Below, piece after piece: positions 27,181-39,857 of a DNA stretch of 43,443 bases. Below the pieces are notes generated by a model, which saw nothing but the letters and a program-made list of their open reading frames with translations, did not search any database and was not told the origin of the DNA. Both the position numbers and the translations under genes were made by a program. This stretch comes from Eubacteriales bacterium (GTDB taxonomy: Bacteria > Bacillota > Clostridia > Oscillospirales > CAG-272): NCBI GenBank assembly GCA_045632465.1, contig JAZQWS010000344.1, positions 1 through 43,443 of the forward strand, given 5' to 3'. Positions within the stretch are counted from its first letter, which is position 1; each line of letters starts with the position of its first letter.

Positions 27181-28374
27181 ATGCAGTTTCATACCGAACC
27201 GAAAACCGTGGCCGAGGCTGCCGTTCTCGCAAGATGCCGCCGGCTGACAGAGTTTGTGTGGACGCCGGTGCGCGAGCTTCCGACCTACACACGCGATAAG
27301 GGAAGCTTCACGCTTCCTGCGGGCGTTCCCATCAAGGGGTTCCCGTATTCCTCCACCGAGAAAACCGACCAATTTATAACCGAAAATATTGCGATCCGTT
27401 CTTTTCTCTCCGCGATCGATAACCCCGACAGCAAGCTGTATCAGCCGGGGCAGGGGCAGTTTTATGCCTGCAATTTCGGCATTGTTTGTAACGGGCTTGC
27501 ACGCTATGCCTTGGGCATTCCGTATCGCGTGAGCACCGCAAGATGGGAAACCATCCCGGGGATGCGCCGCGTGGCGGACAGAGGGTGCTATAAGGCGGAG
27601 GATATCCGTCTGCTCGACGTTCTGTATGCCTTTGGCGAGGGCAGAAATCACGTGGCGATGATCACGGATATCGTTAAGGACGAAAAAGGAAATATCCTCT
27701 CGATCGAGGTTTCGGATGCGATCCGCCCCTCCTGCGCAAGGAGGAGCTTCACGCCCGAGGCATTCTTTGAAAAATGGGCGCTTTTCCATTTGGATCGCTA
27801 TGATTATTTGGAGAGTGTTCCGCTTTTGGATGCGGAAACCGATGCGCTTTTGGATAACTTCCGTCAGAGTGAAAAGCCTCCGCGCATCGCGGTGGATAAC
27901 GGTGATTTTTCCAATTATCGCCTCGGCGAGGATGTTTTGCTTTCCACCTTTTTGGAAGGGGCAGACGAAGTGGAGCTGATCTCGGAGGGCGCGGTTTTGG
28001 AAACCTACAAGGTGTTTGGCCACGCGATGATCACCCTTGCGCCAAAGCGCGGATATTACGAGCTCCGCCTGAAAAGCACGGGCGAGTGTGTGCATTTTGC
28101 CGTTGTCGGCGCGAAAACGAGCTATGAAGCAGAGGATGGCCTTATCACCGTCACCGCAGACCCCTGTGATAAAAAAAGCGAGATCCATTATATGGATTTC
28201 CGCATTTCCGGAGAAAGTCCCAGCGCCCTTGCAAAATACGAGGTGCTGACGGAGGAGGAAAAGGCGCGCGGCGTGATCACGCGCAAGATTCCATCGGACG
28301 CGGGCAGCTTCAAGGTGTACTACAGAAACACTTACGGGATCTGGACGCATCCGCTGACACCCATCGAAAAATAA
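27181..28374 (+). CDS. hypothetical protein (397 aa), last gene of the MATE operon
   Basis: GAGGAG SD then ATG 27181, 13 nt after the esterase stop. Ordinary amino-acid composition. I cannot name a family. Possible Cys/His pair (FGIVCNGLARYAL ... GRNHVAMITDIV). The track start at 27091 overlaps the esterase gene and is rejected. Confidence 0.6.
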   Translation: MQFHTEPKTVAEAAVLARCRRLTEFVWTPVRELPTYTRDKGSFTLPAGVPIKGFPYSSTEKTDQFITENIAIRSFLSAIDNPDSKLYQPGQGQFYACNFGIVCNGLARYALGIPYRVSTARWETIPGMRRVADRGCYKAEDIRLLDVLYAFGEGRNHVAMITDIVKDEKGNILSIEVSDAIRPSCARRSFTPEAFFEKWALFHLDRYDYLESVPLLDAETDALLDNFRQSEKPPRIAVDNGDFSNYRLGEDVLLSTFLEGADEVELISEGAVLETYKVFGHAMITLAPKRGYYELRLKSTGECVHFAVVGAKTSYEAEDGLITVTADPCDKKSEIHYMDFRISGESPSALAKYEVLTEEEKARGVITRKIPSDAGSFKVYYRNTYGIWTHPLTPIEK

Positions 28375-28379
28375 AATAA

Positions 28380-28424
28380 AAACGGTTGCTAAATACCTTT
28401 CGGTGAAGAGCAACCGTTTTTTTG
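28380..28424. terminator. bidirectional intrinsic terminator between the two convergent operons
   Basis: A-run, then stem acggttgct (28383-28391) / agcaaccgt (28410-28418), then TTTTTT (28419-28424). Confidence 0.8.
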
Positions 28425-28437: not shown

Positions 28438-30420
28438 TTAGTTTTTGATTTGAATTTTTGCAATCATAACATTGCTCTCGTAGCGATCGAAAATCTCGGG
28501 TATAACACGCTCCACCGGCTTTTTTGCAGGAATCACGAACCTGTAGTATCTACCGTCATCCATGTCCTCAAAATCGCAGGTGAAGATGGTTTCACGACAA
28601 TAGCCGAGATCTGCGGGACGACCGTCATCCTCAAAGGAAGTAACCTTTCCTTCCTCCTGAGCAGAATGCATCGGGCCGACATTTTCGCCCCAGAGGATCT
28701 CCACGCGCTCGTCGCTTCCGTCCTTGTAATAAATATGGTAATAACCAAGGCGGAACATATCATCGCTCGGGAATTCGCCGCAACCGTAATATCCGTGCTT
28801 GATCACAAGATTCGAGGTGTGCAGAATATCCACGTGCGAGCCACTGAGCACATCGCGGAAGCGATAATCGAAGGCAGAGGCGGCAGTCATAGCAAGCTCA
28901 AGGCCACGCTTCGTATCATCATATTCTCTGCTCCAAGCCATACGGGAGGCATATACCACGGAATCAAGGCGCATACCTCTTTGCATCTGCTTAAAGTCCG
29001 ATGCGCCCCAGCTGGAAACGCAAAAGCCCTTTGCGCCCATAGTGACTCTGGCATTCCACTGATCAAAGAGGATGCCGCTGAAGTTTCCGTACACCATCGG
29101 AAGCCCGTGAAGATGATAATCACGGTCGCCCTGCGGATAATACGACCAGTACCAGTTCATACAGATGATGTCCTTCGGGATCATACCGATGGCGGGATAG
29201 GTTTCCTCTTGCGTGCTACGAATTCTATCCGGAGGAAGGAGCGCAGTTTGCATAGGGGAAATAACATCTATTCCCTTCACCGCATATTCTTTGCCTTTGA
29301 AAGTAACCTTTTTGTCCGTTTCCTTAAACACGATCGTTTTATATGCACCACCCGCAGGCTGCCAGAACTTATTATAGCTATTGAGAAGCTTTTCCGACCA
29401 CATCATCGTACGGATGCCACGCTCCGCGAGATAGCCGTGGATCTTTTTGATATCATCGGCAAAAAGATCTGCGCCACGCTTACCCTTGCAACGAGGGCAA
29501 ACGCCGTATACGTAATATTCATCGTGGCCGATATGAAGCACCTTCGGCTCAAACACCTCGATCACCTCATCAAACACATCGAAAAGGATCTCATAGGACT
29601 TAGGATTCGAGGGACAATAGGTATCGGGCGCGGGATCATCGGGAGATTCGGCGATATCCTTTCTGCCTGCGATCAGATAATCCGCGTGAGAGAGGCAGGG
29701 CACCTCGGGGATTGGCTCAAGACCGCGCGCACGCGCATAGGCACAAATTTCCTTGACGGTTTTCTGAGAAAGGAATTTTCCGCCACCGTTTTCGATATGG
29801 ATCGAGTTTTTGCACCAATACTGCGTGAACATAAAATCCTTGGTTTTTCCGCTGTATTCAAAGAACTCCTTGCAATAATCCACCCAGAAATCATTGATCT
29901 CGGGATGCTTTTTGTATTCCATTGCACCTCCGATCTCAAGAACCAGAGCATTATAGCCGTAATGCATAAACATATCGAGCATATAATAGAATTCATCCAG
30001 TTTTTCCTCTGCGGGCAGATACATTTTTACGGCGCGGAATTCTACGAGCGGCTCGTTGTAAATATAACCCGTGCCGATCCCCTCTCTGTAGTGGGAGAAG
30101 AGCGTGCAAGCACCGTAGAGATGGCCGCGAGGATTGCTTGCATAAACGGTGATATATTCTGCCGTTATCTCTAAAAGATAGGCATCCTCTTTTTTCTCAA
30201 GGACTTCACCGAAGACAGAAATGACCTTTTTCTTTTCGTTTTCGCCAAACGAAAGAAAGCGAATGGCTTTGACAGAATTGCTTTTCTTTCCCGTGAGAAG
30301 AGAAGCCAGCGTTTTTTGAATCACGGAATTTTCGGTTTCCAAAACCGTGTCGGCATCCAAAAACACGGCCTCTGCAGAGAGCTTCACATAGGAATCTTTG
30401 AAATTTTGGTTAAAACTCAT
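28438..30420 (-). CDS. GH20-like glycoside hydrolase (beta-N-acetylhexosaminidase-like TIM barrel), no signal peptide
   Basis: 660 aa. FRAVKMYLP...GYNALVLEIGGAMEY and LHIGHDEYY resemble the GH20 catalytic-domain blocks (H-x-G-x-DE). Family assigned by eye only. Confidence 0.45.
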   Translation of the reverse strand: MSFNQNFKDSYVKLSAEAVFLDADTVLETENSVIQKTLASLLTGKKSNSVKAIRFLSFGENEKKKVISVFGEVLEKKEDAYLLEITAEYITVYASNPRGHLYGACTLFSHYREGIGTGYIYNEPLVEFRAVKMYLPAEEKLDEFYYMLDMFMHYGYNALVLEIGGAMEYKKHPEINDFWVDYCKEFFEYSGKTKDFMFTQYWCKNSIHIENGGGKFLSQKTVKEICAYARARGLEPIPEVPCLSHADYLIAGRKDIAESPDDPAPDTYCPSNPKSYEILFDVFDEVIEVFEPKVLHIGHDEYYVYGVCPRCKGKRGADLFADDIKKIHGYLAERGIRTMMWSEKLLNSYNKFWQPAGGAYKTIVFKETDKKVTFKGKEYAVKGIDVISPMQTALLPPDRIRSTQEETYPAIGMIPKDIICMNWYWSYYPQGDRDYHLHGLPMVYGNFSGILFDQWNARVTMGAKGFCVSSWGASDFKQMQRGMRLDSVVYASRMAWSREYDDTKRGLELAMTAASAFDYRFRDVLSGSHVDILHTSNLVIKHGYYGCGEFPSDDMFRLGYYHIYYKDGSDERVEILWGENVGPMHSAQEEGKVTSFEDDGRPADLGYCRETIFTCDFEDMDDGRYYRFVIPAKKPVERVIPEIFDRYESNVMIAKIQIKN

Positions 30421-30460
30421 AATGGGCTCCTTTTATCCTTTTTGTTTTTTCAGAAATACC

Positions 30461-31564
30461 TTATGCCTCTTCGATCTCGGAGAGCATCACCTTTTTGATC
30501 ACCGTTGCAGACAAAGGGAAGCCTGTTCCGTAGGAATGAAAATAGGAGCAGAGGAAGTAGTCTTTTCCCTCGAATACGGCGGAATAGCAATAGACTTCCT
30601 TGGGGTCATCCTCAAGGAGAAAGACCTTTGCCTTCGAGCTGAAGAAGAAGGGGCCAAGAAATTCCGTTCCCTTTCCGTTTGCGACGGCAAGAGCGAGCGG
30701 AGAACGCTCGCCGCAGCTCATAAAGGAATAATCGTTCAGAGGCGTTGGGGGAAGCGGATTCCAAACAGCAACCGTTCTTCCGTTCGTAATATGGCGCATA
30801 TGCATGGGGGAGCAGGGCGAGGTGAAAAACGGAGAAGGCTCGGGCGTTGAAAAGCTCTCGCCGCCGTCCTCAGATATGCAGATGAACTGCGAGCCGGCGT
30901 AGGTGCGCGAGTAGGCAAGTACCTTGCCGTCCTCAATTTCGAGAACGCCGGTTTCCTGCAGGCCTGCGGGATCGTTTTTTAATGGATTTTCCACGTGGCA
31001 GGATTTTTTAAAGCTTTTGCCGTCGTCGTCGGAATAATAAAGTTCAAAGCTGCCGCGAAGGCGCGGATTTCCGTCTTCATCGTAGGGATGCGCGTTTGTG
31101 GGGAGCAGAATACGTCCGGACGAAAGGCGGATCACGCGGGCGTTATTATTCACAGAGTATTTTGCGTCCGGTGTGCAATCGATCGGCTCGGAGAAATGTT
31201 CTCCATCCTTCGTTCTCGTCAGCATCGTATGCAGGCAGATCCTTCCGTCCTTTCCTAAGAATTTTTCTCCGTAGAACAAACCGATCTCGCCGTTTTGCAT
31301 CGGGAGAAAAGAGCTGAACATACGGTTAATGACGTTATCGGGTGTGGGAATCAATACACGGTAATCGCCGAAGCTTTCGCCCTCGTCCGAAGAAAAGATT
31401 GCGCTGATGCGCGCGGGCGAATGGTCGTGAGTGTTACTCGTATAGTGATCCGAGTAGGCGAACATAATTCTGCCGTCCGGCAGGCGAATAAAGTCGCCGC
31501 CGCCGTTTCGCGCGTTTTGCTTGGTGGGAACAATTGCATGCACCCGCCTTCCGATGATTTTCAT
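30461..31564 (-). CDS. BNR/Asp-box beta-propeller, sialidase (GH33)-family protein, paralog A1; no signal peptide
   Basis: Asp-boxes SSDEGESF, SDDDGKSF and SEDGGESF, plus an N-terminal IRLPDGRI (FRIP-like Arg motif). Alignable along its full length with 33892-35013. Confidence 0.75.
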   Translation of the reverse strand: MKIIGRRVHAIVPTKQNARNGGGDFIRLPDGRIMFAYSDHYTSNTHDHSPARISAIFSSDEGESFGDYRVLIPTPDNVINRMFSSFLPMQNGEIGLFYGEKFLGKDGRICLHTMLTRTKDGEHFSEPIDCTPDAKYSVNNNARVIRLSSGRILLPTNAHPYDEDGNPRLRGSFELYYSDDDGKSFKKSCHVENPLKNDPAGLQETGVLEIEDGKVLAYSRTYAGSQFICISEDGGESFSTPEPSPFFTSPCSPMHMRHITNGRTVAVWNPLPPTPLNDYSFMSCGERSPLALAVANGKGTEFLGPFFFSSKAKVFLLEDDPKEVYCYSAVFEGKDYFLCSYFHSYGTGFPLSATVIKKVMLSEIEEA

Positions 31565-31611
31565 ATGATGCTCCTTTTTGTTTTATTATGAAAAGTGCTT
31601 GAATGCCAAAA

Positions 31612-31712
31612 TCAGTTATAAGACCAAATTTTTTGGATGATCACGGATTGATCGCCGATCTTCTGATAATAAACGGTCAGAAATCTTCCGTCCGAAAGCT
31701 CCACCGTTACAG
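31612..31712 (-). pseudogene. orphan 3'-terminal fragment of a BNR-B type gene
   Basis: The minus strand reads TVELSDGRFLTVYYQKIGDQSVIIQKIWSYN*, matching the last roughly 30 codons of the 32719-33843 gene (...ATVELSDGRFLTVYYQKIGDQSVIIQKIWSYE*). There is no upstream coding continuation of that family. It begins right after the S8-like stop codon. Confidence 0.8.
31619..31708. repeat. 90-nt direct repeat, copy 1 (89/90 identical to 32726-32815)
   Basis: Base-by-base hand alignment at an offset of 1107 nt. The single mismatch is at 31680 (g) versus 32787 (a). Confidence 0.95.
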
Positions 31713-31731
31713 TTTTCTTGATCCGAATTTT

Positions 31732-32688
31732 TTAGTGCTCCATAATGAAGTCGATGGCTTTTTCAAGATTCAAGGCCTTGAAGGAAAGCCCGGTCACCTC
31801 ATCGGTGTATTCTTTTCCCGTGAGCTTGAAGATTGCCATAGCGGCCTCCGGCATGGTTGAGCCGTAATTTTGCCAAGGAAAAGCGGATTTTTCAACGGCC
31901 TCGCGCCAGAGCATGAAGGAGGCGGCGGCATAGGCGTTGGAGGAGGAGGTGAAATCGGCATGCACCAAAAGGTCGGTGTTGCTGAAACGGTCGTTATAAA
32001 CCTTTTCGTCCTTCACCGAGCCGATGGCATAGCAATTTTCCTGGCAGGCGGGCCAGGAGATGCCGTCCGTGTGTTGCAGATTTCCGCAGGGCGCGCTCAC
32101 CCAGATGTTCATTCTTCTCAAGCGCGCAAGCGAGGCGTCCAGCACGGTGGGGCAGGGCTCTGTGTGCGGAACGTCATCCAATGCCGAAAGATTCACGGCG
32201 GTGATATTGTATTTTTCCGCATTCTCTGCAACCCAATCCAAGGCTTTGGCAAGCGTTATGTCCTCGCCCTCGATTTTCGGCAAATGCACGATTGTGCAGG
32301 AGCGAATGTGCGCAACCCGATTGCGATATGCAATGCCGCAAAGCCCGTTGTAGCATAGAGAGGAAGGGTAGCCAACGGTTGTTCCGTGGTATCCGGGAGG
32401 TACGTGCGAGGGATCGTCATTTTCCTCATAAACGTTCCAAGAGGCGATCACCTTTTTGCCCCATGGATGCACCGTTTGCCATTCCGGCACGGTGAGGTTG
32501 CATCCATCGTCCGCGATTGCCAGGGTTTGCCCTTCGCCAAAGGAAAGGATGCCGTCGTATTTTTCCCAAACGCGGGTTGCGCCGATGGATTCGAAATGTG
32601 CTTTGTTATAAGGGGTACGTGCATTGTCGGCGGCATGCTCGGCCGCATCGATTTCGAGCCCCTTTTCGATTCCGCTTAAGCTGCGCAT
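31732..32688 (-). CDS. S8 (subtilisin-like) serine peptidase family protein, no signal peptide
   Basis: ESIGATRVWEKY...GEGQTLAIADDGCN (Asp region), GYHGTTVGY (His region), WVSAPCGN (oxyanion Asn region) and FTSSSNAYAAASF (degenerate GTSxA Ser region). Confidence 0.6.
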   Translation of the reverse strand: MRSLSGIEKGLEIDAAEHAADNARTPYNKAHFESIGATRVWEKYDGILSFGEGQTLAIADDGCNLTVPEWQTVHPWGKKVIASWNVYEENDDPSHVPPGYHGTTVGYPSSLCYNGLCGIAYRNRVAHIRSCTIVHLPKIEGEDITLAKALDWVAENAEKYNITAVNLSALDDVPHTEPCPTVLDASLARLRRMNIWVSAPCGNLQHTDGISWPACQENCYAIGSVKDEKVYNDRFSNTDLLVHADFTSSSNAYAAASFMLWREAVEKSAFPWQNYGSTMPEAAMAIFKLTGKEYTDEVTGLSFKALNLEKAIDFIMEH

Positions 32689-32718
32689 CGCTTTTTTGTC
32701 CTTTCTTGTTTCGTGCTT

Positions 32719-33843
32719 TTATTCGTAAGACCAAATTTTTTGGATGATCACGGATTGATCGCCGATCTTCTGATAATAAACGGTCAAAAATCTTCCGTCC
32801 GAAAGCTCCACCGTTGCAGGATAGCCGAGATCGTGCGTTTCGCTCTCGTTGTCCAGCACGAGATCGGTTTCCCATGTTTTTGCGCCGTCGCGGCTGATCA
32901 TCAGGCGGATGCCAAAGGGCTTTTCGCGATAGCCGTAGGCCGAGATAAGATCGCCGTTTTTGGCAAGGCAAAGATGCGCGGGCGCGCCGCCGCAATCTCC
33001 CGAGATCTGTACCGGGGCGGAGAAGGTGTACCCTCCATCGGTGGAAATGCTTTGATAAATCGTCAGCGCGGCGGGCGTTTTCTTCTCGGTGTGAACGCGG
33101 ATGTGTACAACGATTCTGCCATCGGGCAGACAGATGCAATGCGGCTCACAGACATATGCGCGCTTTCCTTCTCTGTAAATATCGGGGATATTGCCGAGAT
33201 GCTCGAACGTTCCGTCCGAGGAAATGCGATAGCATTGGATGCGCGGATCGGCATCGGCAGGGGATGCGGGGTTTTCCATGTCAAAGCGGCTTCCAACGTA
33301 GCGAAGATCTCCGTCGGGATGCAGAGAGGGGCCATGCGGCGCGGAAATCGGAATTTTTGCTATAGGGCCGAAGCTGTGTCCGCCATCGCGGCTGATGGCA
33401 AAGAGCGAGCCGAGATATTTTTCTTCTGCGCCCTCCATGGATTCAATCACGTCAAGATAGGCGTTGCTGAGCTTCTTTTTGCCCTCGTCGTACCATGCGT
33501 GCTCGCCGCCCGACAAGGCGTTGTAGCTTCTCTGAAAGGCAATGGAATTGTTAAAGCTTGTGACGAGAACGCTTCCGTCACCGAAAACGCCAATGCCCGC
33601 ATCGCGGTCGTCCAGCGGCGTGTCGATCAGAATGGCGGGAGCAGACCAGGTCTTTCCCTCGTCGCGGCTATAGGTGGCAATCACCTTGCCGAAGGCGCAA
33701 ACGTGCTTTAGGCGAAAGCCGGAGCAAACCGTTATCAGCGTTCCGTCGGGAAGCCTTTTTACGGTTGGCCATGCGAAATAGCAAAAGGGACTCTGCGGAT
33801 TTTGGCAAATAATCTTTTTTTCGTGCACTGTAATTTTTGTCAT
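32719..33843 (-). CDS. BNR/Asp-box beta-propeller, sialidase-family protein, type B; no signal peptide
   Basis: Asp-boxes SRDEGKTW, SRDGGHSF, STDGGYTF and SRDGAKTW, plus KRLPDG near the N-terminus. AAGGAG precedes ATG 33843, which is preferred over 33885. Confidence 0.75.
   Translation of the reverse strand: MTKITVHEKKIICQNPQSPFCYFAWPTVKRLPDGTLITVCSGFRLKHVCAFGKVIATYSRDEGKTWSAPAILIDTPLDDRDAGIGVFGDGSVLVTSFNNSIAFQRSYNALSGGEHAWYDEGKKKLSNAYLDVIESMEGAEEKYLGSLFAISRDGGHSFGPIAKIPISAPHGPSLHPDGDLRYVGSRFDMENPASPADADPRIQCYRISSDGTFEHLGNIPDIYREGKRAYVCEPHCICLPDGRIVVHIRVHTEKKTPAALTIYQSISTDGGYTFSAPVQISGDCGGAPAHLCLAKNGDLISAYGYREKPFGIRLMISRDGAKTWETDLVLDNESETHDLGYPATVELSDGRFLTVYYQKIGDQSVIIQKIWSYE
32726..32815. 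repeat. 90-nt direct repeat, copy 2 (3' end of the intact BNR-B gene)
   Basis: See copy 1. This copy is the genuine C-terminal coding sequence of 32719-33843. Confidence 0.95.
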
Positions 33844-33891
33844 TCCATATCTCCTTGTGCATATGTGCGATCGATTGTAAAACAACCGATA

Positions 33892-35013
33892 TTATTCCTC
33901 GATTTCGGAGAAGAGAATTTTCTTTATCACGGTGGCGGAAAGAACGTTCTTCGTGCCAAAGGAGTGGTAGTAGGCGCAGAGAAGATAGTCTTTTCCGACA
34001 AAGACGGCGGGATAGCAATAAACGTCCTCGGGGCTATCCTCTAAAAGGAAGACCTTGGCAGGAACGCTTCGCGGAGCATTGCGGATGAAGGCTTCGCCTT
34101 TTCCTTCAACGATCGCCGTAAGCAGGGGCGTTCGGTCGACGCCTCCCGCGCTTATACGGGTGCAACCTGCGTTGTGCGGCATGGGCGGCGCGGGATTGAA
34201 TACCGCGATCGTTTGATTTTCGCCCAAATGGCGCATATGCATGGGGGCGCAGGGGGAGGTGAAATAGGGGCAGGGGAGCGGCTTTGTGAAGCTTTCGCCT
34301 CCGTCCTCGGAAATGCTGGTGTATTGGCAGCCGCCGCTCGTGCGGTGGAAGGCGAGAATTTTTCCTTCTTCGATTTCGATAACGCCGGTTTCCTGCAATC
34401 CGGATTCCAGGTTTTCGCAGGGGTTTTCGAGCCGAGCGGGGCTCTTTTTAAAGGTTTTGCCGTCATCGTCCGAATAATAGAATATCGAGATGCCGCGGGA
34501 TGCAATGCCGTGGTGCGTGTCATCCTGAAATGGGTGATGGTTCAGAGGGAGCAGAATCCGCCCCGAAGAAAGACGAATCACTCTGGCGTTTTCCTTTACG
34601 AAATAATCCTCGTTATTTGTGCAGTTGGTGGGAGAAGAAAAGACCTTTGCGTCTCGCGTGCGCGTCAGCATCACGCGCATACCGATGCGTCCCATGCTGT
34701 TTTTGAATTTTTCGCCGTAAAAAAGGCCGATCTCGCCGTTTTGCATCGGGAGGAGGGAAACGCACATACGGTTGACCACCGTTTCGTCCATCGGCACAAG
34801 CACGCGGTAGCCGCCAAAGCTTTCGCCCTCATCCGAGGAGAAAACGGCACTGATTTGCGAGGCGGCGTGGTCGTGCACGCTGCCGCCGATATATTCACTG
34901 TAAGCATACATAATGCGCCCATCGGGAAGGCGGATCATGTCGCCCTCTCCGTTTCGCACGTTGTCGCCTATAGGGGGCAAGGCGCAAACTCTTTTTCCTA
35001 CAACCTTTATCAT
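33892..35013 (-). CDS. BNR/Asp-box beta-propeller, sialidase-family protein, paralog A2; no signal peptide
   Basis: SSDEGESF, SDDDGKTF, SEDGGESF and IRLPDGRIMYAY. Collinear with A1 (30461-31564), including the TSPC(A/S)PMHMRH block. Confidence 0.75.
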   Translation of the reverse strand: MIKVVGKRVCALPPIGDNVRNGEGDMIRLPDGRIMYAYSEYIGGSVHDHAASQISAVFSSDEGESFGGYRVLVPMDETVVNRMCVSLLPMQNGEIGLFYGEKFKNSMGRIGMRVMLTRTRDAKVFSSPTNCTNNEDYFVKENARVIRLSSGRILLPLNHHPFQDDTHHGIASRGISIFYYSDDDGKTFKKSPARLENPCENLESGLQETGVIEIEEGKILAFHRTSGGCQYTSISEDGGESFTKPLPCPYFTSPCAPMHMRHLGENQTIAVFNPAPPMPHNAGCTRISAGGVDRTPLLTAIVEGKGEAFIRNAPRSVPAKVFLLEDSPEDVYCYPAVFVGKDYLLCAYYHSFGTKNVLSATVIKKILFSEIEE

Positions 35014-35027
35014 TTCTTTTTCTTCCT

Positions 35028-36566
35028 TTATTCAAATTTTATGGAATACAGATCGGCATCGGCCATTTTGATCTCCAAAATGACCTCCTTGCCCGAGAAG
35101 CGTTTCACGGCATCCTCGGGAAAATGGATCTTCTTATCGGTGCTGTCACCGAAGATCTCGCAGCTTTCTGCCTTTTCATCGCCGCAGATCAGCGTAAAAT
35201 ACAGATGGCCGAAGGCGGAGGTGGAAATGTTGGCATAGAGGTTTTCTCCCTCGTAGATAAAGGGCTTGGTAATCACCGTTTCCTCCTCGTCCGCGTGCAG
35301 GGAAGCAAAGCCGTCCATGCGCAGAACGTAGCGGTAAAGTCTGGGCGGATCGCCGAGGCAATGACCGTCCGGCGAATAGAAAGAAAGCTCATCGTCCGCG
35401 CCGGGGATGTGCGATTTTGTCACCATGGGAATGGGGGTGGGATAGCAATCGCCGTAGAGCCAGCCGTTCGGATTTTCGGGGCCGGGGCGCATAAAGGCGG
35501 GCTTGAAGCGGTGAAAATGCAATCCGTCACGCGAGGTCATAAAGCCGCAATCCGTCACGGAAAGGCCAAAACGGGGAACAACGTTGTAGCGCTTATAGCG
35601 CTTTTCTCTGCCGCAAAGCTCATCGTAGTTTGCCGTCCATTCGTGGCGCTCTCTATAGCGCGTGTGAATGCCGATAAACATATGCGGCGCGCGAGCATAG
35701 CGGCTGATGCCGTTGGTATACATATGGTATTCATCCTCGTCCGCATAGGAGATGCAAACGGGATCGCTCCAGGTCTTGTAGTCCTTCGATTCGTAGTAGT
35801 AAACGTCGCGGTAGGCCGGGGCTGAAGAGCTGTGGATCTTTCCGTTGATGGCATCCCAGCCCATTGCGGTGCATTCCGCAGGGCTCATTCCTTTGATGCG
35901 CATACCGCGCGCGTAAAGGCGGTAGAGCTTTTCCTCCTTGTCCCATATCACGATGTTGAGAGAATCAAAGCCTCCCTGGTTCGTGATCATTTCTCCGAAG
36001 CGGAAATGAATGCCGTCGGGCGAGAGCATCGTGAAGAGGCGCGGTCTGTGAACCACGCCGGGCATCTTGGGCGGATCCCAGGCCGTGATGCCCTTGTAGC
36101 GCTCGTTTTCGGGACAATCGGGATTTTCATCATAGAAAACGTAGAGCTGGCAGGATTCGGGGTGAATGGTCTTGTCGAGAATCAGATTGTTATGCGTGCT
36201 TCCGCCGTAGGTGCAGATGCCGAGGTCGGGCTTTTCAAAATGAATGCCGTCGCCGCTCTCAAGATAGCAGATGCGATAGCCGTCCTCCATCTCTTCCTCT
36301 TTTAAGTGGCAGGGAAATTCGCGGCTGTGAGCGCCGTAGTGATACATGCGGTAGGTTCCGTTCGGATACTGTCCATGAACGCCCTTCCAGCGCGGATCGA
36401 AAAACACGTGGTGATAGCAGCAGGCCGCTCCCTCCCAGGGCGCATCGTGCAAAACAACGCATTCGCGCTTTTCGGGGCGGTGGAGGCAGATCTTCGCGGT
36501 GGTTTTTTCCTTATTCAGCAGAAAATCGTCAAAAAAGCATTCTCTGCGGTTTCTTATGTTGATCAT
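35028..36566 (-). CDS. hypothetical protein (512 aa), possibly a beta-propeller/lectin-fold glycan-active enzyme
   Basis: Long ORF inside the operon, with 14-nt and 26-nt gaps to its neighbours. No signal peptide. Trp/Tyr/Gly/Asp-rich composition, as in glycoside hydrolases. I recognise no diagnostic motif. Confidence 0.55.
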   Translation of the reverse strand: MINIRNRRECFFDDFLLNKEKTTAKICLHRPEKRECVVLHDAPWEGAACCYHHVFFDPRWKGVHGQYPNGTYRMYHYGAHSREFPCHLKEEEMEDGYRICYLESGDGIHFEKPDLGICTYGGSTHNNLILDKTIHPESCQLYVFYDENPDCPENERYKGITAWDPPKMPGVVHRPRLFTMLSPDGIHFRFGEMITNQGGFDSLNIVIWDKEEKLYRLYARGMRIKGMSPAECTAMGWDAINGKIHSSSAPAYRDVYYYESKDYKTWSDPVCISYADEDEYHMYTNGISRYARAPHMFIGIHTRYRERHEWTANYDELCGREKRYKRYNVVPRFGLSVTDCGFMTSRDGLHFHRFKPAFMRPGPENPNGWLYGDCYPTPIPMVTKSHIPGADDELSFYSPDGHCLGDPPRLYRYVLRMDGFASLHADEEETVITKPFIYEGENLYANISTSAFGHLYFTLICGDEKAESCEIFGDSTDKKIHFPEDAVKRFSGKEVILEIKMADADLYSIKFE

Positions 36567-36592
36567 TGCAAAAAATCCTTTCTACTTTTAGG

Positions 36593-37285
36593 TTAAGCGG
36601 TTGCCTCTGCGGCCTTGTTGGCCTGCTGTTCCTTATAGAGCTTCCAGATCGCGAAAATACTGCGCGCAACGCAGATCGCGCCGTAAATGCCGCTGATCAG
36701 GAAGGGGAATCTGGAGGGATCGTCCAAAACCATAGTGATATTGAGAACCATACCGATGGTGCAGCTGATGATCTGGATAAAAGGCGCTTCGCGGAAGGAG
36801 AAGAGATGCAAAACCGTCACGAGAATGCCGAGAAGAGAGGTGAGGGTATCGAGCGTTCCGTAGCTTGAGCCGAGAAGCTTCAGCACGGGAACGGCAATGC
36901 AGAAAATGAGCACGAAGCTTGTACCGATTCCGATATACATCTTTTTGGTCATACGGCGGAAAACGGTGGAATCCTTATAGGCGCGCTTCGACCAGGTAAA
37001 GAAGGTTGCCAGCTGAAGCAGGCAGGAGAAGAAAAATGCGTAGAACGCGGAAAAATAAAGGCCGAGGCCGATGTAGGAGATCGTATAGAGAACGGAGTTC
37101 AGTCCGCCGATCAGAAAGGCATAGCGATTCGCCTTCGAGGTCAGCATTCCAACGAAGAGCGAAATGTAAAGAGGAAGAACGAGATAAAAGGGAGAGGGGA
37201 AGATGCAATAGGTCGTGGTGATTCCAATGGCTGTCAGAATAAGCAAAAAACGGCGCGACGTCAAGATACTAAGTGCTTTTTTCAT
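36593..37285 (-). CDS. PnuC-like (nicotinamide riboside transporter family) small membrane protein
   Basis: About 230 aa with about 7 TM segments. Blocks ANRYAFLIGGLNSVLYTISY...LLQLATFFTWSK and DTLTSLLGILVTVLHL...FREAPFIQIIS...IFAIWKLYK follow the PnuC pattern (two repeats each ending in a W-x-K/W-K segment). From memory of the family, not a search. Confidence 0.5.
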   Translation of the reverse strand: MKKALSILTSRRFLLILTAIGITTTYCIFPSPFYLVLPLYISLFVGMLTSKANRYAFLIGGLNSVLYTISYIGLGLYFSAFYAFFFSCLLQLATFFTWSKRAYKDSTVFRRMTKKMYIGIGTSFVLIFCIAVPVLKLLGSSYGTLDTLTSLLGILVTVLHLFSFREAPFIQIISCTIGMVLNITMVLDDPSRFPFLISGIYGAICVARSIFAIWKLYKEQQANKAAEATA

Positions 37286-37319: not shown

Positions 37320-37348
37320 ATTATACATGAGAAAAATGGAAAAAACAA
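37320..37348 (-). promoter_or_regulatory. possible promoter for the PnuC-like/sialidase-like operon
   Basis: On the minus strand, TTGTTT, 17 nt, TATAAT (complement of 37320-37325). The -35 is weak. Confidence 0.3.
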
Positions 37349-37393: not shown

Positions 37394-38275
37394 CTATTCG
37401 GTGAAATTTTGCTCTCTGTACTCGCTTGGCGTGCATCCGAAGGCCTTGCGAAATGCAATATGAAAGCCGGAGGGTGAGGCGTAGCCTACCTCAGCTCCGA
37501 TCATGTCAATGGGCAAGTTCGTTGTGATCAGAAGCCCCTTGGCATAATGTAAGCGGAGCTCGGAAAGCTTCTTTCGGAAGCTCATGCCGAAGATGCTGCG
37601 CACAACGCGGCTCGTTTGCCGAATGGAGAGTCCGAGCAATTCGGCAAGATCCGCTTCGCAGATCGGCTCGCTTATATGCTGTTGCATTAAAATTTCGATT
37701 TTATTGTAGCGTGCGTTTGCATCGTCACTTTTTTGAAGAGAGACGTTCTCCTGCGGATTCATTACGGCGCCGAGACGGCGGTAAAGAAGAAGGAAGAGCT
37801 CGCAAAGATAGGCGCGGCAGAGCGGCGCGGAGGCGGCCTGATTTGAAAGCGTTTCCTCCTTGATTTTTTGCAGAAGCAGAATCAGATCCGCCGCATCCGA
37901 AAGGTGTGTCAGCGTGTGCAGGGTGGCGAAACGCGAGAAAAGATCCTCGCAGTCCTCCTTTTGGCGCGCATGGCAGGAAAATCGAAGTGTCAGCCGGCGG
38001 GTACCCATCTTTGCATCAACGAGGTGATAAATGTCCGGGGGAATCAGGCATATACCCCCTCGGGTCACTCTGATCTGCTCGGCGTTTGAGGTTTGAAAAA
38101 TAAGCTCCCCTTCGGTAACCGCCTGCATCTCAAAAACGGGATGGCTGTGAAAGGGTGTGGCGCGGATCTCGTCTTCACGAATGGAACCGTCTAAGGTAAT
38201 CGCCGCGGCGAGGTTTTCAAGCTCGAAGGAATAGGAGGAATAAAACGCGTGCTCGTATTCGCATTTTTGTGTCAT
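37394..38275 (-). CDS. AraC/XylS-family transcriptional regulator (cupin N-domain plus HTH)
   Basis: C-terminal LMQQHISEPICEADLAELLGLSIRQTSRVVRSIFGMSFRKKLSELRLHYAKGLL...IDMIGAEVGYASPSGFHIAFRKAFGCTPSEYR. GAGGAGG SD. Confidence 0.88.
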   Translation of the reverse strand: MTQKCEYEHAFYSSYSFELENLAAAITLDGSIREDEIRATPFHSHPVFEMQAVTEGELIFQTSNAEQIRVTRGGICLIPPDIYHLVDAKMGTRRLTLRFSCHARQKEDCEDLFSRFATLHTLTHLSDAADLILLLQKIKEETLSNQAASAPLCRAYLCELFLLLYRRLGAVMNPQENVSLQKSDDANARYNKIEILMQQHISEPICEADLAELLGLSIRQTSRVVRSIFGMSFRKKLSELRLHYAKGLLITTNLPIDMIGAEVGYASPSGFHIAFRKAFGCTPSEYREQNFTE

Positions 38276-38305: not shown

Positions 38306-39817
38306 TTATCTTTCCTTAATATGTAATGTTGGGTTTACAATAGAGTCGCAAATCCGCACTTCTGTCGAGCGCATCTCGAGAAGTCGCATGCCCATGTTCT
38401 CGATGATGTTGCGGGGCGGAAGGGGAAGCGTTTTGAATTCTTTTGCGTTGATCTGCTTGGATTTTGAAACGATGGAGATGTATCTGTCGTAGATCGTGGA
38501 ATTCAGAAGCGCAAAGAGTCCGAAGAGAAGTCTTGCGCAGATCTCGCCGCCCTTTTCCTTCGTGTCGATAAAGTTGAGCTTGTTATGCGTGCTGACGAAG
38601 CGGTAGGCGGGAAGGCGCGAGGACATATAGATGCCCGCGTTCACGAATCTCTCGTCTCTCTTGGCGGGAACGCGCTTGATCAGGATCATATTCTTGTTGG
38701 GCTGGAAGAGCGTTTTGGAGACGGGCGCGATATATTGCTTGGCAACGGCGGCAGGGAAATGTACCATGCCCTTTTCGATCGAGGCGGGGCGCAGAAGCGG
38801 GATCGTTCCCTTCACGGGATCGTTGAAAAGCATGCCGCCGCATCGGTTGTCCAGAACGAGACCGGTGTGCATCTTGAGACCGAGGCTATCCAGCGTTTCG
38901 GGGAAGTCCGAAATATAGCGAACGATGTTGGCATCCTCGGCGCTCTTCGGAAGCGTCAGCCCGCGGCCCTCCTTGTCCACCACGAAATCGTAAGAAAGAA
39001 GAGGAAGCGCGTTGGTTTTCGCGCCGTGGTCGGTCGAGGTATAGATCTGCACGTTTTCGGGCGCATCGCCCTTGCGCATCGCGAGAATGCATTCCTTCTT
39101 GAGCGGAACGGCGCGGCGCTCGTTTTTCTGTTTTCCTATAAAGAGATGCACCGATTGGAGCGGCATTTCTCCGAAAAGCGAGAGGCGGAAGGGCTTCTGC
39201 TCGGTGGCGGATGCAATGGTGGTCGGCATCATGATAACGAGCTGGCCGTCCTCCTCAAGGTGTCTTTTCGCCGTTTCGGCAAAGAGGAGCGCGCTGTGCG
39301 CCTTCACGGTGCTGATGCCGCCGATGGCCTTCGCCTCCTCCGATCCCTTTGCGTAAAGCTCCTTGGGGGGATTGCAGATGATATAATCAAAGGTGTCCTC
39401 CACGCGCTTGAAAAAATGCATCGTGTAGTGCTCCTTGGATTCGGTGATATAATTCTCTTCGTAAACGGTGATGAAAAGATGCACGTCATAGTCATGGCGG
39501 CACTTCTTGCGGATTCTCTCGAGGTTATCCTTCAACATGGGAAGGAAGGTCTCGTCGTTTTCGTAGCAGGTGAGAAAGATCTGCTTGCATCTGGGAGCTT
39601 CCTTGCAAATGCGCTCCACCAGCGCGGCCGAAAGAATACCCGTGCCCGCACCGGGATCCAGGATCGTGCAAGCGTTTTTCTCCGTATGCAAAGAAAACAT
39701 GGAAGCCATCACGCGCGCCGTGTCCTTTTTCGTAAAAAGTCTGCCAAGGCGAACGTTTTCGCTATCCACCCTCGCGCGCACAAGCTTTGCCGTGTTTCTG
39801 CAAGCCAAATTCAGCAT
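38306..39817 (-). CDS. gamma-class N6-adenine DNA methyltransferase (Eco57I/TaqI-like) with a C-terminal target-recognition-like domain; no partner endonuclease
   Basis: Motif I ILDPGAGTGIL (complement of about 39638-39658). Motif IV position reads DYIICNPPKELY (NPPK at the complement of 39362-39373) rather than NPP[YFW]. About 250-aa C-terminal domain. GGAGG SD. Confidence 0.7.
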   Translation of the reverse strand: MLNLACRNTAKLVRARVDSENVRLGRLFTKKDTARVMASMFSLHTEKNACTILDPGAGTGILSAALVERICKEAPRCKQIFLTCYENDETFLPMLKDNLERIRKKCRHDYDVHLFITVYEENYITESKEHYTMHFFKRVEDTFDYIICNPPKELYAKGSEEAKAIGGISTVKAHSALLFAETAKRHLEEDGQLVIMMPTTIASATEQKPFRLSLFGEMPLQSVHLFIGKQKNERRAVPLKKECILAMRKGDAPENVQIYTSTDHGAKTNALPLLSYDFVVDKEGRGLTLPKSAEDANIVRYISDFPETLDSLGLKMHTGLVLDNRCGGMLFNDPVKGTIPLLRPASIEKGMVHFPAAVAKQYIAPVSKTLFQPNKNMILIKRVPAKRDERFVNAGIYMSSRLPAYRFVSTHNKLNFIDTKEKGGEICARLLFGLFALLNSTIYDRYISIVSKSKQINAKEFKTLPLPPRNIIENMGMRLLEMRSTEVRICDSIVNPTLHIKER

Positions 39818-39857
39818 TTCTCTACCTCCAAAATTCTGCCTTGTTTTTTATAACACT

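Follow-up and report, generated by a model that had tools for sequence, protein, structure and literature searches.

Organization of the locus

The window, which is the entire contig C344 (43 kb) of a cattle-gut Clostridia bacterium, contains seven minus-strand open reading frames (ORFs), from 36593–37285 down to 28438–30420. The original prediction had assigned these to one operon, and all seven are present where it had placed them. From first to last, they encode a PnuC-like membrane carrier, a 512-aa protein, the sialidase-like propeller A2, the propeller B, an S8-like protein, the A2 paralog A1, and a GH20-like enzyme. The intergenic gaps are 26, 14, 48, 30, 167, and 40 nt, in agreement with the predicted spacing of 14–48 nt save for one 167-nt gap holding an orphan fragment. 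The genes have good Shine-Dalgarno sequences, which support the starts at 37285 (PnuC-like carrier) and 33843 (B). The order MTase-AraC-PnuC-512aa-A is kept in all four of the closest loci (L010–L013); the S8-like gene is present in three of these, the GH20 gene in two, and B in none.

As predicted, an AraC-family gene (37394–38275, minus strand) lies just upstream of the operon, 108 nt away on the same strand. Its product comprises a cupin sensor domain and HTH_18 (Pfam HTH_18, 78.8 bits; AraC_binding, 27.8 bits) and is likely the activator of the operon; an AraC gene adjoins the PnuC-like gene in 8 of 80 loci of the A family. Direct reading of the AraC/PnuC spacer reveals an extended −10 box, TGTATAAT (37320–37327, minus strand), without a good −35 element; a promoter at this position would be activator-dependent. 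The box was not listed by a promoter consensus scan, whose yield (17 sites versus 11.7 in shuffles, sd 3.6) was not above shuffles.

A second operon, on the plus strand, converges with the first. It contains five tandem MATE paralogs (19409–26395; two MatE repeats each, 110–133 bits), followed by a leaderless SASA-family (sialate O-acetylesterase-like) esterase as the last-but-one gene (26409–27167; PF03629, 149.5 bits) and a 397-aa protein without a Pfam or NCBIfam match as the last gene (27181–28374). Both L011 and L013 encode an esterase 86–87% identical to this one and also conserve the 397-aa protein; an Atlas search with the latter returns only unnamed clusters at 0.95–0.97. The claim that the window contains two DUF303 esterase genes stands for the SASA esterase and is marginal for the second gene, 5305–6396, whose SASA match spans 19 residues and, at 24.9 bits, barely passes the cut-off of 24.8. 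Between the two operons, direct reading reveals a convergent hairpin, AACGGTTGC ... GCAACCGTT (28381–28424), preceded by an A-run and followed by a T-run, which may serve as a bidirectional terminator; it is missing from the hairpin scan, whose rule permits loops of at most 8. Other genes in the window encode a GT4 (WecA-like) protein, a WbsX-like protein, and a DUF1576 membrane protein.

A1 and A2 model as minimal GH33-type sialidases

The original prediction recognized three BNR propellers with an xRLPDG motif, and all three hold up: A2 (373 aa; 33892–35013, minus strand), B (374 aa; 32719–33843, minus strand), and A1 (367 aa; 30461–31564, minus strand) score 59.7, 56.5, and 61.9 bits with Pfam BNR_2 (cut-off 31.4 bits) and carry the motif as MIRLPDG, KRLPDG, and FIRLPDG, respectively. 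A1 and A2 are 59–60% identical and are thus the close paralogs they had been taken for. A1 is 88% identical to its counterpart in L012, and a third A copy is present elsewhere in the genome, after a GH38 gene and under an AraC gene.

The AF2 model of A2 (pLDDT 90.8) superimposes on 1w8o with a VIA Z of 36.0 and an rmsd of 2.8 Å over 316 residues, and on human cytosolic NEU2 with a Z of about 35 over 327 residues. Seven residues, R20, D48, E208, R224, R294, E325, and Y334, are invariant among 34 aligned sequences, and R28 is kept in at least 90% of them. Specifically, E208, R224, and R294 align with 8axs chain positions 197, 213, and 284, which, with an offset of 21, correspond to E218, R234, and R305 of AmGH181. 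In GH33 entry 4fj6, the residue opposite D48 in the alignment is the second Asp beyond the first strand pair. Both leaderless proteins model as minimal GH33-type sialidases, with conserved Arg, Asp, Glu, and Tyr at the expected spacing, and are exo-sialidase candidates. Against this reading, A is only 12–18% identical to solved sialidases; no NCBIfam model matched A, residue-by-residue alignment did not place its first Arg or its Tyr, and a C-terminal profile of the A family retrieved no sialidase.

The sialidase-family assignment, which had been made for all three propellers, extends to the fold and most catalytic residues of A1 and A2, and not clearly to B. B is a Dfer_1899-like propeller (PDB 5hx0, E 3.5e-11) with 3640 representatives at E ≤ 1e-3. 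Its invariant residues among 38 sequences (W25, P26, D78, E233, R249, D338, Y341, and Y357) form a set partly different from that of A, and it has no strictly conserved Arg in the RIP-like position.

Other products of the operon

The 512-aa protein (35028–36566, minus strand) is modeled as a five-bladed β-propeller with a C-terminal β-sandwich (AF2 pLDDT 91.2). Pfam and NCBIfam searches returned no match; 1190 homologues were found at E ≤ 1e-3, and the 120 listed are mostly unnamed and otherwise called 'hypothetical protein'. The closest structures are 5mt2 (BT_0996; VIA Z 22.7), GH130 phosphorylases (22.5), and the GalNAc deacetylase 6n1a (22.4), with GH43/GH62 at about 20. The protein is a GH43/GH130/GH137-like propeller by this model, and its family, which has at least 1190 members and no Pfam model, is a candidate new family of glycoside hydrolases or phosphorylases.

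The last gene encodes a leaderless GH20 β-N-acetylhexosaminidase-like enzyme of 660 aa (28438–30420, minus strand; Glyco_hydro_20, 59.5 bits; PDB 9fym, E 1.9e-23), in which HIGHDEY aligns with HVGLDEV, so that the Asp-Glu pair is kept. The S8-like protein, leaderless and subtilase-like (318 aa; 31732–32688, minus strand), scores 18.7 bits with Peptidase_S8, under the cut-off of 21.8; the Asp of its IADDG aligns with the subtilase Asp in 9ues/3afg, and one member of its cluster is named 'S8/S53 family peptidase' in its source record. The orphan fragment (31619–31712, minus strand) is a 94-nt duplicate of the B 3′ end (97.9% identity to 32726–32819) and has no other copy in the rest of the genome. 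Together, the two form a direct repeat flanking the S8-like gene. A contig joint 31618→32726 skips the gene in runs X20 and X8, and a joint 31626→31726 in run X1 lacks the fragment; the S8-like segment is present or absent between strains.

Absence of export signals and of canonical importers

Export signals were assessed on maximal ORFs as the highest Kyte-Doolittle mean of any 12-residue stretch among the first 70 residues. All 11 glycan enzymes of the window have best means of at most 1.42, whereas ApbE has a mean of 2.77 and a lipobox-like LFSC. None of the enzymes has an N-terminal hydrophobic segment such as ApbE possesses, in accord with the prediction that a signal peptide or lipobox is recognizable in ApbE and in none of the enzymes. 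The absence of export signals even on the longest ORFs, together with the side on which the BNR domain lies in a fused relative (see below), supports the proposed intracellular processing.

The claim that the window encodes no canonical importer is likewise borne out: Pfam scans of 38 ORFs that span the window reveal no SBP, BPD_transp_1, PTS, or MFS/GPH family. Its membrane proteins are six MATE proteins, the PnuC-like carrier, a Na/Pi cotransporter, the GT4 (WecA-like) protein, and an 11-TM DUF1576 protein, the last of which was missing from the carrier candidates of the original prediction. No ABC solute-binding protein or permease family occurs among the 181 cluster representatives of the 280 genes found no more than two genes away from A across the 80 loci. 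Against the reading, one relative, of another family, has A followed by an SBP_bac_5 gene. Elsewhere the genome has 11 BPD_transp_1 matches, an MFS carrier, and EamA carriers.

A PnuC-like carrier is linked, and in relatives fused, to A

The PnuC-like carrier (36593–37285, minus strand) has 8 predicted TM helices with both termini inside; its even loops contain 16 K+R and its odd loops 2. With 43.6 bits for PF04973 (cut-off 27.3) and 29.8 bits for the nicotinamide-riboside transporter equivalog TIGR01528 (cut-off 42.45), it is, by profile score, a divergent PF04973 member and not an equivalog of that transporter. Eight of the 80 A-family loci (L010–L013, L016, L023, L027, and L071) have a PnuC-like gene next to A; in the last four, A is only 37–42% identical to the A of the window. 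AraC lies beside the PnuC–A pair in six of these eight (L010–L013, L027, and L071), and Pfam adds L016.

In L016, PnuC and A form a single 607-aa ORF, with PF04973 at residues 38–216 and PF13088 at 320–577. The carrier of the window shares 32% identity over 200 aa with the N-terminal half of this type of fusion protein (P0044; E 4e-25). The 607-aa protein belongs to a 90%-identity cluster of 68 members. Of the 15 listed, eight are 606/607-aa forms, each on up to 10 contigs; 254-aa and 353-aa forms also occur, and Pfam identifies one 254-aa form as the PnuC part and one 353-aa form as the BNR part. By the positive-inside rule, the BNR domain of the fused relative, located beyond the final membrane helix, lies on the cytoplasmic side. 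Fusion of a PnuC-like domain to the hydrolase is difficult to account for if the substrate does not enter by way of that domain. Counting against this reading, 71 of the 80 A-family loci have no PnuC-like gene beside A, and many of these place A among housekeeping genes (gatB, amidase, NUDIX, Metallophos). Our literature search found no paper that describes a PnuC-sialidase pairing.

Import through the PnuC-like protein and/or the MATE paralogs had been proposed. Conserved adjacency and gene fusion support the PnuC-like protein as a putative importer, and the case for MATE is one of association with glycan loci, in this genome and two relatives. The six MATE proteins of the window are 39–59% identical pairwise and form one clade with those of contig C314 (support 100/99); L011 and L013 also have the array next to the operon, and 12 of the 18 MATE genes or pieces in the genome have a glycan enzyme no more than two genes away, the other six having no recognized glycan enzyme within that distance. 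To our knowledge, all characterized MATE proteins are cation-coupled exporters, so product efflux fits this association equally well. The second PnuC of the genome, which adjoins MATE and GH115 genes, passes the nicotinamide-riboside equivalog cut-off (59.2 bits), and its position may therefore be chance.

Genomic context of A genes

In other loci, A genes lie near DHDPS-family lyases (L017, L018, L032, and L074), SASA (L011, L013, and L089), GH20 (L010, L012, and L050), GH38 (L067), GH92 (L064), GH2 (L032), GH109 (L025), and sulfatases (L014 and L089), a context that points to host sialoglycans as the probable source of substrate. The L017 lyase scores best against NanA models, under their cut-offs, and that of L074 scores best as DapA, also under cut-off. 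In the genome itself, NanE, a sugar kinase, GH42, and AraC are in one cluster on contig C370. No N-acetylneuraminate lyase was recognized in the assembly (92% complete, 406 contigs): of its four DHDPS-family matches, the two strong ones exceed the cut-off of the DapA equivalog but not that of either NanA model, and three places match the NanA model, none at cut-off. Because the assembly contains no NanA-grade lyase, Neu5Ac catabolism remains a candidate only. Counting the window contig, paralogs of the GH39-like, GH20-like, and 512-aa proteins occur on 12, 21, and 8 contigs, respectively.

Discussion

We propose, with somewhat more confidence than doubt, that the operon is AraC-controlled and serves to degrade, within the cell, a small glycoside of the sialic-acid (2-keto-3-deoxy acid) type that the bacterium scavenges from host glycans. 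The divergent 8-TM carrier encoded by the first gene would pass the substrate across the membrane, and cytoplasmic GH33-like A2 and A1 would hydrolyze it, thereby maintaining an inward gradient (metabolic trapping), as phosphorylation by NadR does for nicotinamide riboside. The GH20 hexosaminidase, the five-bladed propeller enzyme, B, and the S8-like protein may process what remains of the molecule, or related substrates; the convergent operon would contribute a sialate-O-acetylesterase-like enzyme and five MATE carriers, for uptake or for product efflux. The operon and the carrier-enzyme fusion thus point to an undescribed import-and-trap route for a small acidic sugar compound. The known substrates of PnuC carriers are vitamins of nucleoside size, and a sialyl-oligosaccharide would be large for a PnuC pore, a point against our reading; PnuC is reportedly kin to SWEET sugar carriers, a relationship ascribed to Feng and Frommer in 2016.

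The size of the pore bears on an alternative that is less probable and still deserves weight, namely that import and cytoplasmic hydrolysis occur as proposed and that the substrate of A and B is not sialic acid, being instead another acidic keto-sugar (KDN, Kdo, Dha, pseudaminic acid, or legionaminic acid) or a modified monosaccharide (2,7-anhydro-Neu5Ac or Neu5Ac2en), either of which would suit a small PnuC pore. The low identity of A to characterized sialidases, the missing NanA-grade lyase, and the grouping of B, lacking a strict RIP-position Arg, with uncharacterized Dfer_1899 would all fit such a substrate, as would the minimal AraC/PnuC/A modules of L016, L023, L027, and L071, which have no second glycosidase within two genes of A that could handle an aglycone sugar. 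However, A genes elsewhere keep the company of a set for sialylated host glycans (NanA-like lyase, SASA, GH2, GH20, GH38, and sulfatases), and NanE is present in the genome.

It is rather unlikely that MATE, and perhaps the PnuC-like protein too, are not importers and that the glycan enters by a carrier encoded elsewhere, of which the BPD_transp_1, MFS, and EamA matches offer instances; the MATE proteins would then expel an unusable or toxic product (free sialic acid, aglycone, or de-esterification product) or be ordinary drug pumps. The exporter activity of the characterized MATE proteins, the six MATE genes or pieces apart from glycan enzymes, and the missing lyase for the released sugar acid agree with this, and the text of a 2026 review of bacterial glycoside transporters does not mention MATE (as a transporter), PnuC, SWEET, or MOP. 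The PnuC-hydrolase fusion argues against it; the other 12 MATE genes or pieces near glycan enzymes, and the array kept with SASA and the 397-aa protein in two relatives, do so as well, and all of this is neutral as to the direction of transport. Least probable by far is action on the cell's own glycoconjugates, as cytoplasmic turnover or remodeling of a surface glycan or glycoprotein precursor. MATE proteins are members of the MOP superfamily, which includes lipid-linked glycan flippases, and the window has the GT4, WbsX-like, and DUF1576 proteins; but AraC-type sensors over the operon and several similar loci, the large paralog expansions, and the linked sugar-catabolic genes (NanE, kinase, and GH42) fit nutrient foraging instead.

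The proposed import-and-trap route can be compared with several known systems. Like the GH33 catalytic domain of Micromonospora viridifaciens (1eur, 1w8o, and 2ber), NEU2 (1snt and 1vcu), and Clostridium perfringens NanH (8ub5), A is a six-bladed propeller of equal size with Asp-boxes and the order Arg, Asp, Glu, Arg, Arg, Tyr, with Glu and Arg likewise 16 residues apart. A is leaderless, as are NEU2 and NanH; NanH is described, in the abstract of PMC4509764, as having no secretion signal and being predicted to be intracellular. A differs in having a short 'IRLPDG' instead of the usual RIP motif and hairpin, in that its first Arg and its Tyr are assigned by conservation and spacing only, and in its pairing with a PnuC-family carrier, to which it is fused in relatives. 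The best PDB profile match of the A family is AmGH181 (Amuc_1547) of Akkermansia muciniphila (8AXI/8AXS/8AXT; E 1.4e-17). The AmGH181 paper identifies R234 and R305 as two arginines common to GH33 and E218 as the glutamate by the nucleophile site, the catalytic-site residues with which those of A2 align. According to the same paper, GH181 has Gln for the nucleophile Tyr and for one Arg, its authors hypothesize an inverting mechanism, and it carries a CBM-like domain, whereas A keeps an invariant Tyr and is a bare propeller. Dfer_1899 of Dyadobacter fermentans (5HX0), the match of B and also the top Foldseek match of the A model, is a structural-genomics protein without described function, and a whole-word search for its PDB code found no paper.

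Gut Firmicutes and bifidobacteria have import-then-degrade pathways for sialoglycans and HMOs with ABC importers, as in the Ruminococcus gnavus nan cluster. The present system shares with these a gut Gram-positive host, scavenging of sialylated host glycans, as we propose it, cytoplasmic steps, and a dedicated regulator; it differs in that the window contig has no ABC solute-binding protein or permease and in that the sialidase-like enzyme itself is cytoplasmic. Another parallel is with PnuC and NadR, in which phosphorylation by cytosolic NadR drives uptake of nicotinamide riboside through PnuC. Both carriers belong to PF04973, that of the window with 8 predicted helices and both ends inside, and both are coupled to a cytoplasmic enzyme that converts the substrate; the carrier of the window fails the nicotinamide-riboside transporter model, and its partner is a glycosidase, whereas NadR is a kinase.

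Organization of the operon and its signals

The window, which makes up the entire contig C344 of a 2.59-Mb draft genome (406 contigs, completeness 92%, contamination 4.3%), contains all seven minus-strand ORFs of the original prediction, an observation that is confirmed as a whole. In operon order, the genes encode a PnuC-like protein (36593–37285), a 512-aa protein (35028–36566), the BNR_2 propellers A2 (33892–35013) and B (32719–33843), an S8-like protein (31732–32688), the BNR_2 propeller A1 (30461–31564), and a GH20 protein (28438–30420), and are separated by 26, 14, 48, 30, 167, and 40 nt; Shine-Dalgarno sequences back the starts assigned at 37285 and 33843. An AraC-family gene (37394–38275) is located upstream on the same strand, and the spacer between it and the PnuC-like gene is 108 nt.

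Reading by eye, we identified an extended −10 box, TGTATAAT, at 37320–37327 in the AraC/PnuC spacer, with no good −35 element, and an inverted repeat at 28381–28418, with an A-run 5′ and a T-run 3′, where the operon meets the plus-strand MATE operon. Because the generic consensus scan did not rise above its shuffles (17 promoters versus 11.7, s.d. 3.6; 24 terminators versus 19.1, s.d. 5.0), both elements are our own interpretation of the sequence. When six upstream regions were compared by k-mers, only −10-like words emerged, and no common operator. The word ATGCTAAAAT is common to the regions upstream of the first MATE gene (MATE1, 19229–19408), a SASA-like gene (5208–5304), and a methyltransferase-like gene (39818–39935), and TTATGCTAAAAT occurs in two of these three; both words look like extended −10 boxes, and the MATE1 region, in contrast to the PnuC promoter, has TTGACT ~17 nt further upstream. 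The methyltransferase-like gene (38306–39817, minus strand) adjoins the AraC gene and encodes an orphan N6-adenine DNA methyltransferase-like protein (Eco57I, N6_Mtase, and MTS matches), for which no restriction partner was seen; it is kept beside AraC in four of four close loci at 84–90% identity, AraC itself being 50–57% identical. The sole Rfam match at gathering score within the window is a tRNA gene (4167–4239, minus strand, 71.6 bits).

Strain variation around the S8-like gene

A 94-nt copy of the 3′ end of B (31619–31712) and the original (32726–32819) form direct repeats flanking the S8-like gene; the orphan fragment of the original prediction is this copy and is ruled out as a separate gene. 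Contigs from other sequencing runs differ here. Specifically, contigs from runs X8 (DNA) and X20 (RNA library) join 31618 to 32726 and lack the S8-like gene and one repeat, and a contig from run X1 joins 31626 to 31726 and lacks the orphan fragment. In the relative loci L010 and L012 the order is A2-A1-S8-like-GH20, without B, so that the S8-like gene follows A1. Together, the contig joints and the gene order in these loci indicate that the S8-like gene is a movable part of the operon.

The window's stretch is present, at shares of 0.31–0.52, in 19 DNA runs that come from five studies of the gut of cattle or other animals. In the X20 metatranscriptome, short contigs fall in 11 of 30 bins (word share 0.06) and match parts of the GH20 gene, A1, B, and the spacer between AraC and PnuC; they may reflect DNA carry-over and are not counted as proof of expression.

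A1 and A2 are sialidase-like propellers

A1 and A2 share 59–60% identity, pass the Pfam BNR_2 cut-off, and contain BNR repeats. The AF2 model of A2 (pLDDT 90.8) is a six-bladed sialidase-type β-propeller with Asp-boxes, which matches the Micromonospora viridifaciens sialidase 1w8o (Z 36.0, rmsd 2.8 Å, 316 residues) and human cytosolic NEU2 (Z ~35). Source databases name close homologues 'exo-alpha-sialidase' or 'sialidase-1'. Across 34 sequences of the A family, comprising relatives of A1 and A2, residues R20, D48, E208, R224, R294, E325, and Y334 are invariant, and R28, within F-I-R-L-x-D-G, is conserved in at least 90%.

The best PDB profile match of the A family is 8AXI/8AXS/8AXT (E 1.4e-17), entries deposited as AmGH181 according to their paper. 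With an offset of 21 between chain and paper numbering, A2 residues E208, R224, and R294 align with AmGH181 E218, R234, and R305, and the paper gives R234 and R305 as the arginines in common with GH33. The second and third arginines of the sialidase triad are therefore found in A1 and A2, at the invariant R224 and R294. According to the paper, GH181 has Gln at the position of the GH33 Tyr nucleophile, whereas the A family retains an invariant Tyr. E208 and Y334 are the candidates for the Glu partner and the Tyr nucleophile. Y334 lies 40 residues past R294, versus 45 from R305 to Q350 in GH181, in a last blade that is unalignable by sequence; a profile of this blade against the PDB gave only chance matches to actin (E > 0.1), and the Tyr could not be aligned. 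The candidates for the first Arg (RIP motif), R20 and R28, fall outside every residue-level alignment to solved sialidases. The invariant D48 is matched to the second Asp that follows the first pair of strands in GH33 entry 4fj6, an Asp that we take to be the catalytic acid/base. Sequence and model together make A1 and A2 candidate GH33-like enzymes, with predicted sialidase activity.

Other enzymes of the operon and the window

B matches the uncharacterized Dyadobacter fermentans protein Dfer_1899 (PDB 5hx0; E 3.5e-11), for which we found no literature under the PDB code. The invariant residues of the B family (W25, P26, D78, E233, R249, D338, Y341, and Y357) differ from those of the A family; the Arg of K-R-L-P-D-G is a majority residue only, and the preceding W25-P26 is invariant. 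Twenty longer or fused B-family members carry Laminin_G_3, NIPSNAP, Antibiotic_NAT, or Flg_new domains, and in none of the 20 is PnuC the partner. Fusions (P0354, P0321, P0369, and others) combine B with an aminoglycoside 3-N-acetyltransferase, NIPSNAP, a lectin-like Laminin_G_3 domain, or Flg_new surface repeats.

The 512-aa protein has no Pfam or NCBIfam match and at least 1190 homologues, with many invariant acidic and basic residues. Its model (pLDDT 91.2) comprises a five-bladed propeller and a C-terminal sandwich and resembles BT_0996, which we take to be of GH137 type, GH130 phosphorylases, a GalNAc deacetylase, GH43, and GH62 (Z 20–22.7, tied within ~2 Z units). The modelled fold fits that of five-bladed propeller glycosidases and phosphorylases (GH43/62/32/130/137).

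The GH20 protein scores 59.5 bits (Pfam cut-off 22.3) and retains the Asp-Glu pair, its H-I-G-H-D-E aligning to H-V-G-L-D-E of 9fym (E 1.9e-23). The S8-like protein scores 18.7 bits against Peptidase S8, below the cut-off of 21.8; its Asp aligns with the subtilase Asp, and its His (YHGT) and Ser (SSSNA) were chosen by eye. Elsewhere in the window, the SASA gene (26409–27167, plus strand) matches PF03629 along 219 of the 226 profile positions (149.5 bits), and the SASA-like gene (5305–6396) matches it marginally (24.9 versus cut-off 24.8 bits).

The glycan enzymes lack export signals and the window lacks canonical sugar importers

Two observations of the original prediction, that the glycan enzymes are leaderless and that no canonical sugar importer is encoded, are both upheld. 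In a hydrophobicity heuristic (12-residue Kyte-Doolittle mean in the first 70 residues of the longest possible ORFs), none of the 11 glycan-related enzymes exceeds 1.42, versus 2.77 for the ApbE lipoprotein; since the longest ORFs were used, signal peptides masked by wrong starts are ruled out. No family of solute-binding proteins, ABC permeases, PTS, or MFS/GPH came up in Pfam scans of 38 ORFs that cover the window. The membrane proteins recognized are six MATE proteins, the PnuC-like protein, a Na/Pi cotransporter, GT4, and an 11-helix DUF1576 protein. The DUF1576 gene (7928–9340, plus strand), which comes directly after the SASA-like gene and the WbsX-like gene and lies opposite another AraC gene, encodes an additional candidate carrier, missing from the original list.

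The PnuC-like carrier is linked to the A family

The PnuC-like protein matches PF04973 (43.6 bits, cut-off 27.3) and has eight predicted helices, with 16 Lys and Arg residues in even loops versus 2 in odd loops. It falls below the nicotinamide riboside equivalog TIGR01528 (29.8 bits, cut-off 42.45); the second PnuC of the genome, on contig C213, scores 59.2 bits and is above that cut-off.

One protein among 120 A2 homologues listed, P0044 (607 aa), combines PF04973 with PF13088. P0044 is a single open frame in relative locus L016, with PnuC at residues 38–216 and BNR_2 at 320–577, and over a stretch of 200 residues its N-terminal half shares 32% identity with the PnuC-like protein of the window (E 4e-25). 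P0044 belongs to a cluster of 68 members at 90% identity; eight of the 15 listed are 606/607-aa forms, each on up to 10 contigs, and the cluster also has 254-aa forms and 353-aa forms, one of the former recognized by Pfam as the PnuC portion and one of the latter as the BNR portion. By homology, the eight helices and Lys/Arg loop bias of the window's carrier place the fused propeller in the cytoplasm. No longer protein was retrieved with the PnuC-like protein as query, a weak result, as P0044 itself was not recovered.

Relatives of A were collected by scanning one genome per species with an alignment as query, which yielded 155 relatives, the best 80 loci being kept; a search with the A2 sequence alone found none. 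All 80 loci are from gut Clostridia MAGs. By tblastn with the window proteins, a PnuC-like gene adjoins A in eight of these best 80. In particular, the four close loci (L010–L013) keep the order MTase-AraC-PnuC-512aa-A, and in L016, L023, L027, and L071 a PnuC-like gene stands beside A, with A only 37–42% identical; AraC accompanies the PnuC/A pair in L027 and L071 (tblastn) and in L016 (Pfam). Imp-YgjV proteins, which neighbour an A gene in three cases and a MATE gene in one, were considered as PnuC kin; hhalign gave 22% probability over 30 tail columns, too little to show kinship, and they are therefore not counted with PnuC. Both cytoplasmic processing and a PnuC-like importer, as originally proposed, find good comparative support. 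No PnuC-sialidase pairing or fusion is described in the main texts and abstracts searched, and searches joining PnuC with sialidase, or with glycoside hydrolase or oligosaccharide transport, returned nothing relevant.

Genomic context and the nature of the substrate

For the 80 loci, we surveyed the 280 genes that lie no more than two genes away from A, through their 181 cluster representatives. A DHDPS-family lyase is near A in L017, L018, L032, and L074, with the L017 protein scoring best against NanA models and the L074 protein best as DapA, each under the respective cut-offs. SASA esterases are near A in L011, L013, and L089, a GDSL_3/GxDLY esterase in L066, and GH20 in L010, L012, and L050; GH38, GH92, GH2, GH109, and sulfatases appear in single loci or pairs of loci. 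The lyase, esterase, glycoside hydrolase, and sulfatase neighbours argue for a role in sialoglycan use. In many loci, mostly of Acutalibacteraceae, A instead has housekeeping neighbours (gatB, amidase, Metallophos, NUDIX, and fructosamine-kinase-like genes), surroundings that count against such a role or are neutral. The rest of the genome bears on the same question. No place in the assembly (406 contigs, 92% complete) reaches the cut-off of the NanA lyase model, a narrow model that is above cut-off in only one of 14 control genomes, and the two strong matches among four DHDPS-family matches exceed the cut-off for DapA and stay under those of both NanA models. The NanA shortfall counts against a complete sialic acid pathway, although in a fragmented assembly and with a narrow model. 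NanE is present on C370, where its neighbours are a sugar kinase of the BadF type, GH42, and an AraC gene.

Carriers beside A are PnuC-like, Imp-YgjV (three loci), EamA (two), MFS (two), and Na_H_antiporter-family proteins (five or six), and no solute-binding protein or ABC permease family is present among the 181 representatives, points that likewise speak against a sialoglycan role or are neutral to it. In one genome of another family of the same order (L125, G034:C29, 6461–10861), an A-family gene lies between L-fucose isomerase and SBP_bac_5 genes; the SBP_bac_5 gene after A suggests that A-type enzymes may elsewhere be served by ABC systems.

Genome-wide, BNR_2 matches occur in 10 places and BPD_transp_1 matches in 11. 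A third A copy, split between C3:1–566 and C301:9516–10214, follows a GH38 α-mannosidase and a 421-aa unknown, with AraC just upstream on the opposite strand; its GH38 setting suggests cytoplasmic N-glycan breakdown. Counting the window's contig, this 2.6-Mb genome has GH39-like matches on 12 contigs, GH20-like matches on 21, and 512-aa-like matches on eight, and C107 has three of the GH20-like ones in tandem (62–71% identity). These large paralog expansions concern leaderless glycan enzymes.

MATE genes are associated with glycan loci

The genome has 38 MatE half-domains, corresponding to 18 genes or gene pieces, two of which, at contig ends, may be one gene. The window's six MATE genes score 110–133 bits, with two MatE (PF01554) stretches each. 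Twelve of the 18, the window's six included, are within two genes of a recognized glycan enzyme. Specifically, a MATE gene is beside GH115 on C213, a weak case, as the PnuC there is the canonical one; with GH39, AraC, and YgjV on C180; directly 3′ of three tandem heparinase II/III-like genes, followed by a GDSL esterase, on C32 (L116:1–7290); with DUF4838 and MocA on C157; and adjoining 512-aa-like genes on C82 and C362. The last two are probably one MATE gene over two contig ends, with 512-aa propeller paralogs on both sides, an arrangement that repeats the window's MATE-propeller pairing. The other six (C189, C357, C386, C217, C314, and C389) have no recognized glycan enzyme within two genes.

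The window's six MATE proteins are 39–59% identical and, with that of C314, form one clade (support 100/99) among 16 full-length MATE proteins, the two partial genes being left out of the tree. This identity range and the single supported clade indicate that the array is old and not a recent amplification. L011 and L013 retain the array, the SASA gene, and the 397-aa protein gene (27181–28374, plus strand) next to the operon. This genomic evidence shows association with glycan loci, not direction of transport. A term search of a 2026 review of bacterial glycoside transporters returned no MATE as transporter, PnuC, SWEET, or MOP, and a paper that covers the MATE family, sialic acid, and the nan operon names MATE only as drug efflux.

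Discussion

In gut mucus, capture of sialic acid shapes which microbes thrive. To our knowledge, the known bacterial routes for sialic acid use ABC, TRAP, SSS, or MFS carriers, and vitamin-type nucleosides are the only known substrates of the PnuC family. As a tentative joint reading, possible though in our estimate not the probable one, a branch of PnuC would have been recruited as importer of a sialic-acid-type compound, by facilitated diffusion and trapping by a cytoplasmic, sometimes fused, GH33-like hydrolase, and a dedicated MATE clade would serve the breakdown of glycans in the cytoplasm of ABC-poor gut Clostridia. The compound imported may be a sialyl-disaccharide, or a sialic acid in anhydro or dehydro form set free by other gut microbes; the MATE clade might comprise the first MATE-type glycoside importers, or pumps that remove products. 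From the original interpretation, cytoplasmic processing and the PnuC-like importer stand, on comparative support; the MATE proposal stands as an association that does not give direction, and sialic acid stands as a candidate substrate.

If this reading is correct, the coupling or fusion of a PnuC-type carrier to a sialidase-like enzyme in the cytoplasm would add a new class of transporters for sialosides or sugar acids, and a two-gene module easily testable in E. coli. For enzyme discovery, the 512-aa propeller, which has many homologues but lacks a Pfam model, and the propellers A and B are targets at hand. This genome further suggests that in uncultured cattle-gut Clostridia most glycan breakdown is intracellular, ABC systems being few and MATE genes numerous, a pattern that challenges the usual genome-based prediction of sugar use. 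Overall, the original interpretation is partly supported, and the system would be a variant of import-then-degrade glycan catabolism in which a PnuC-like carrier is paired with a sialidase-like enzyme, a pairing new to the literature searched.
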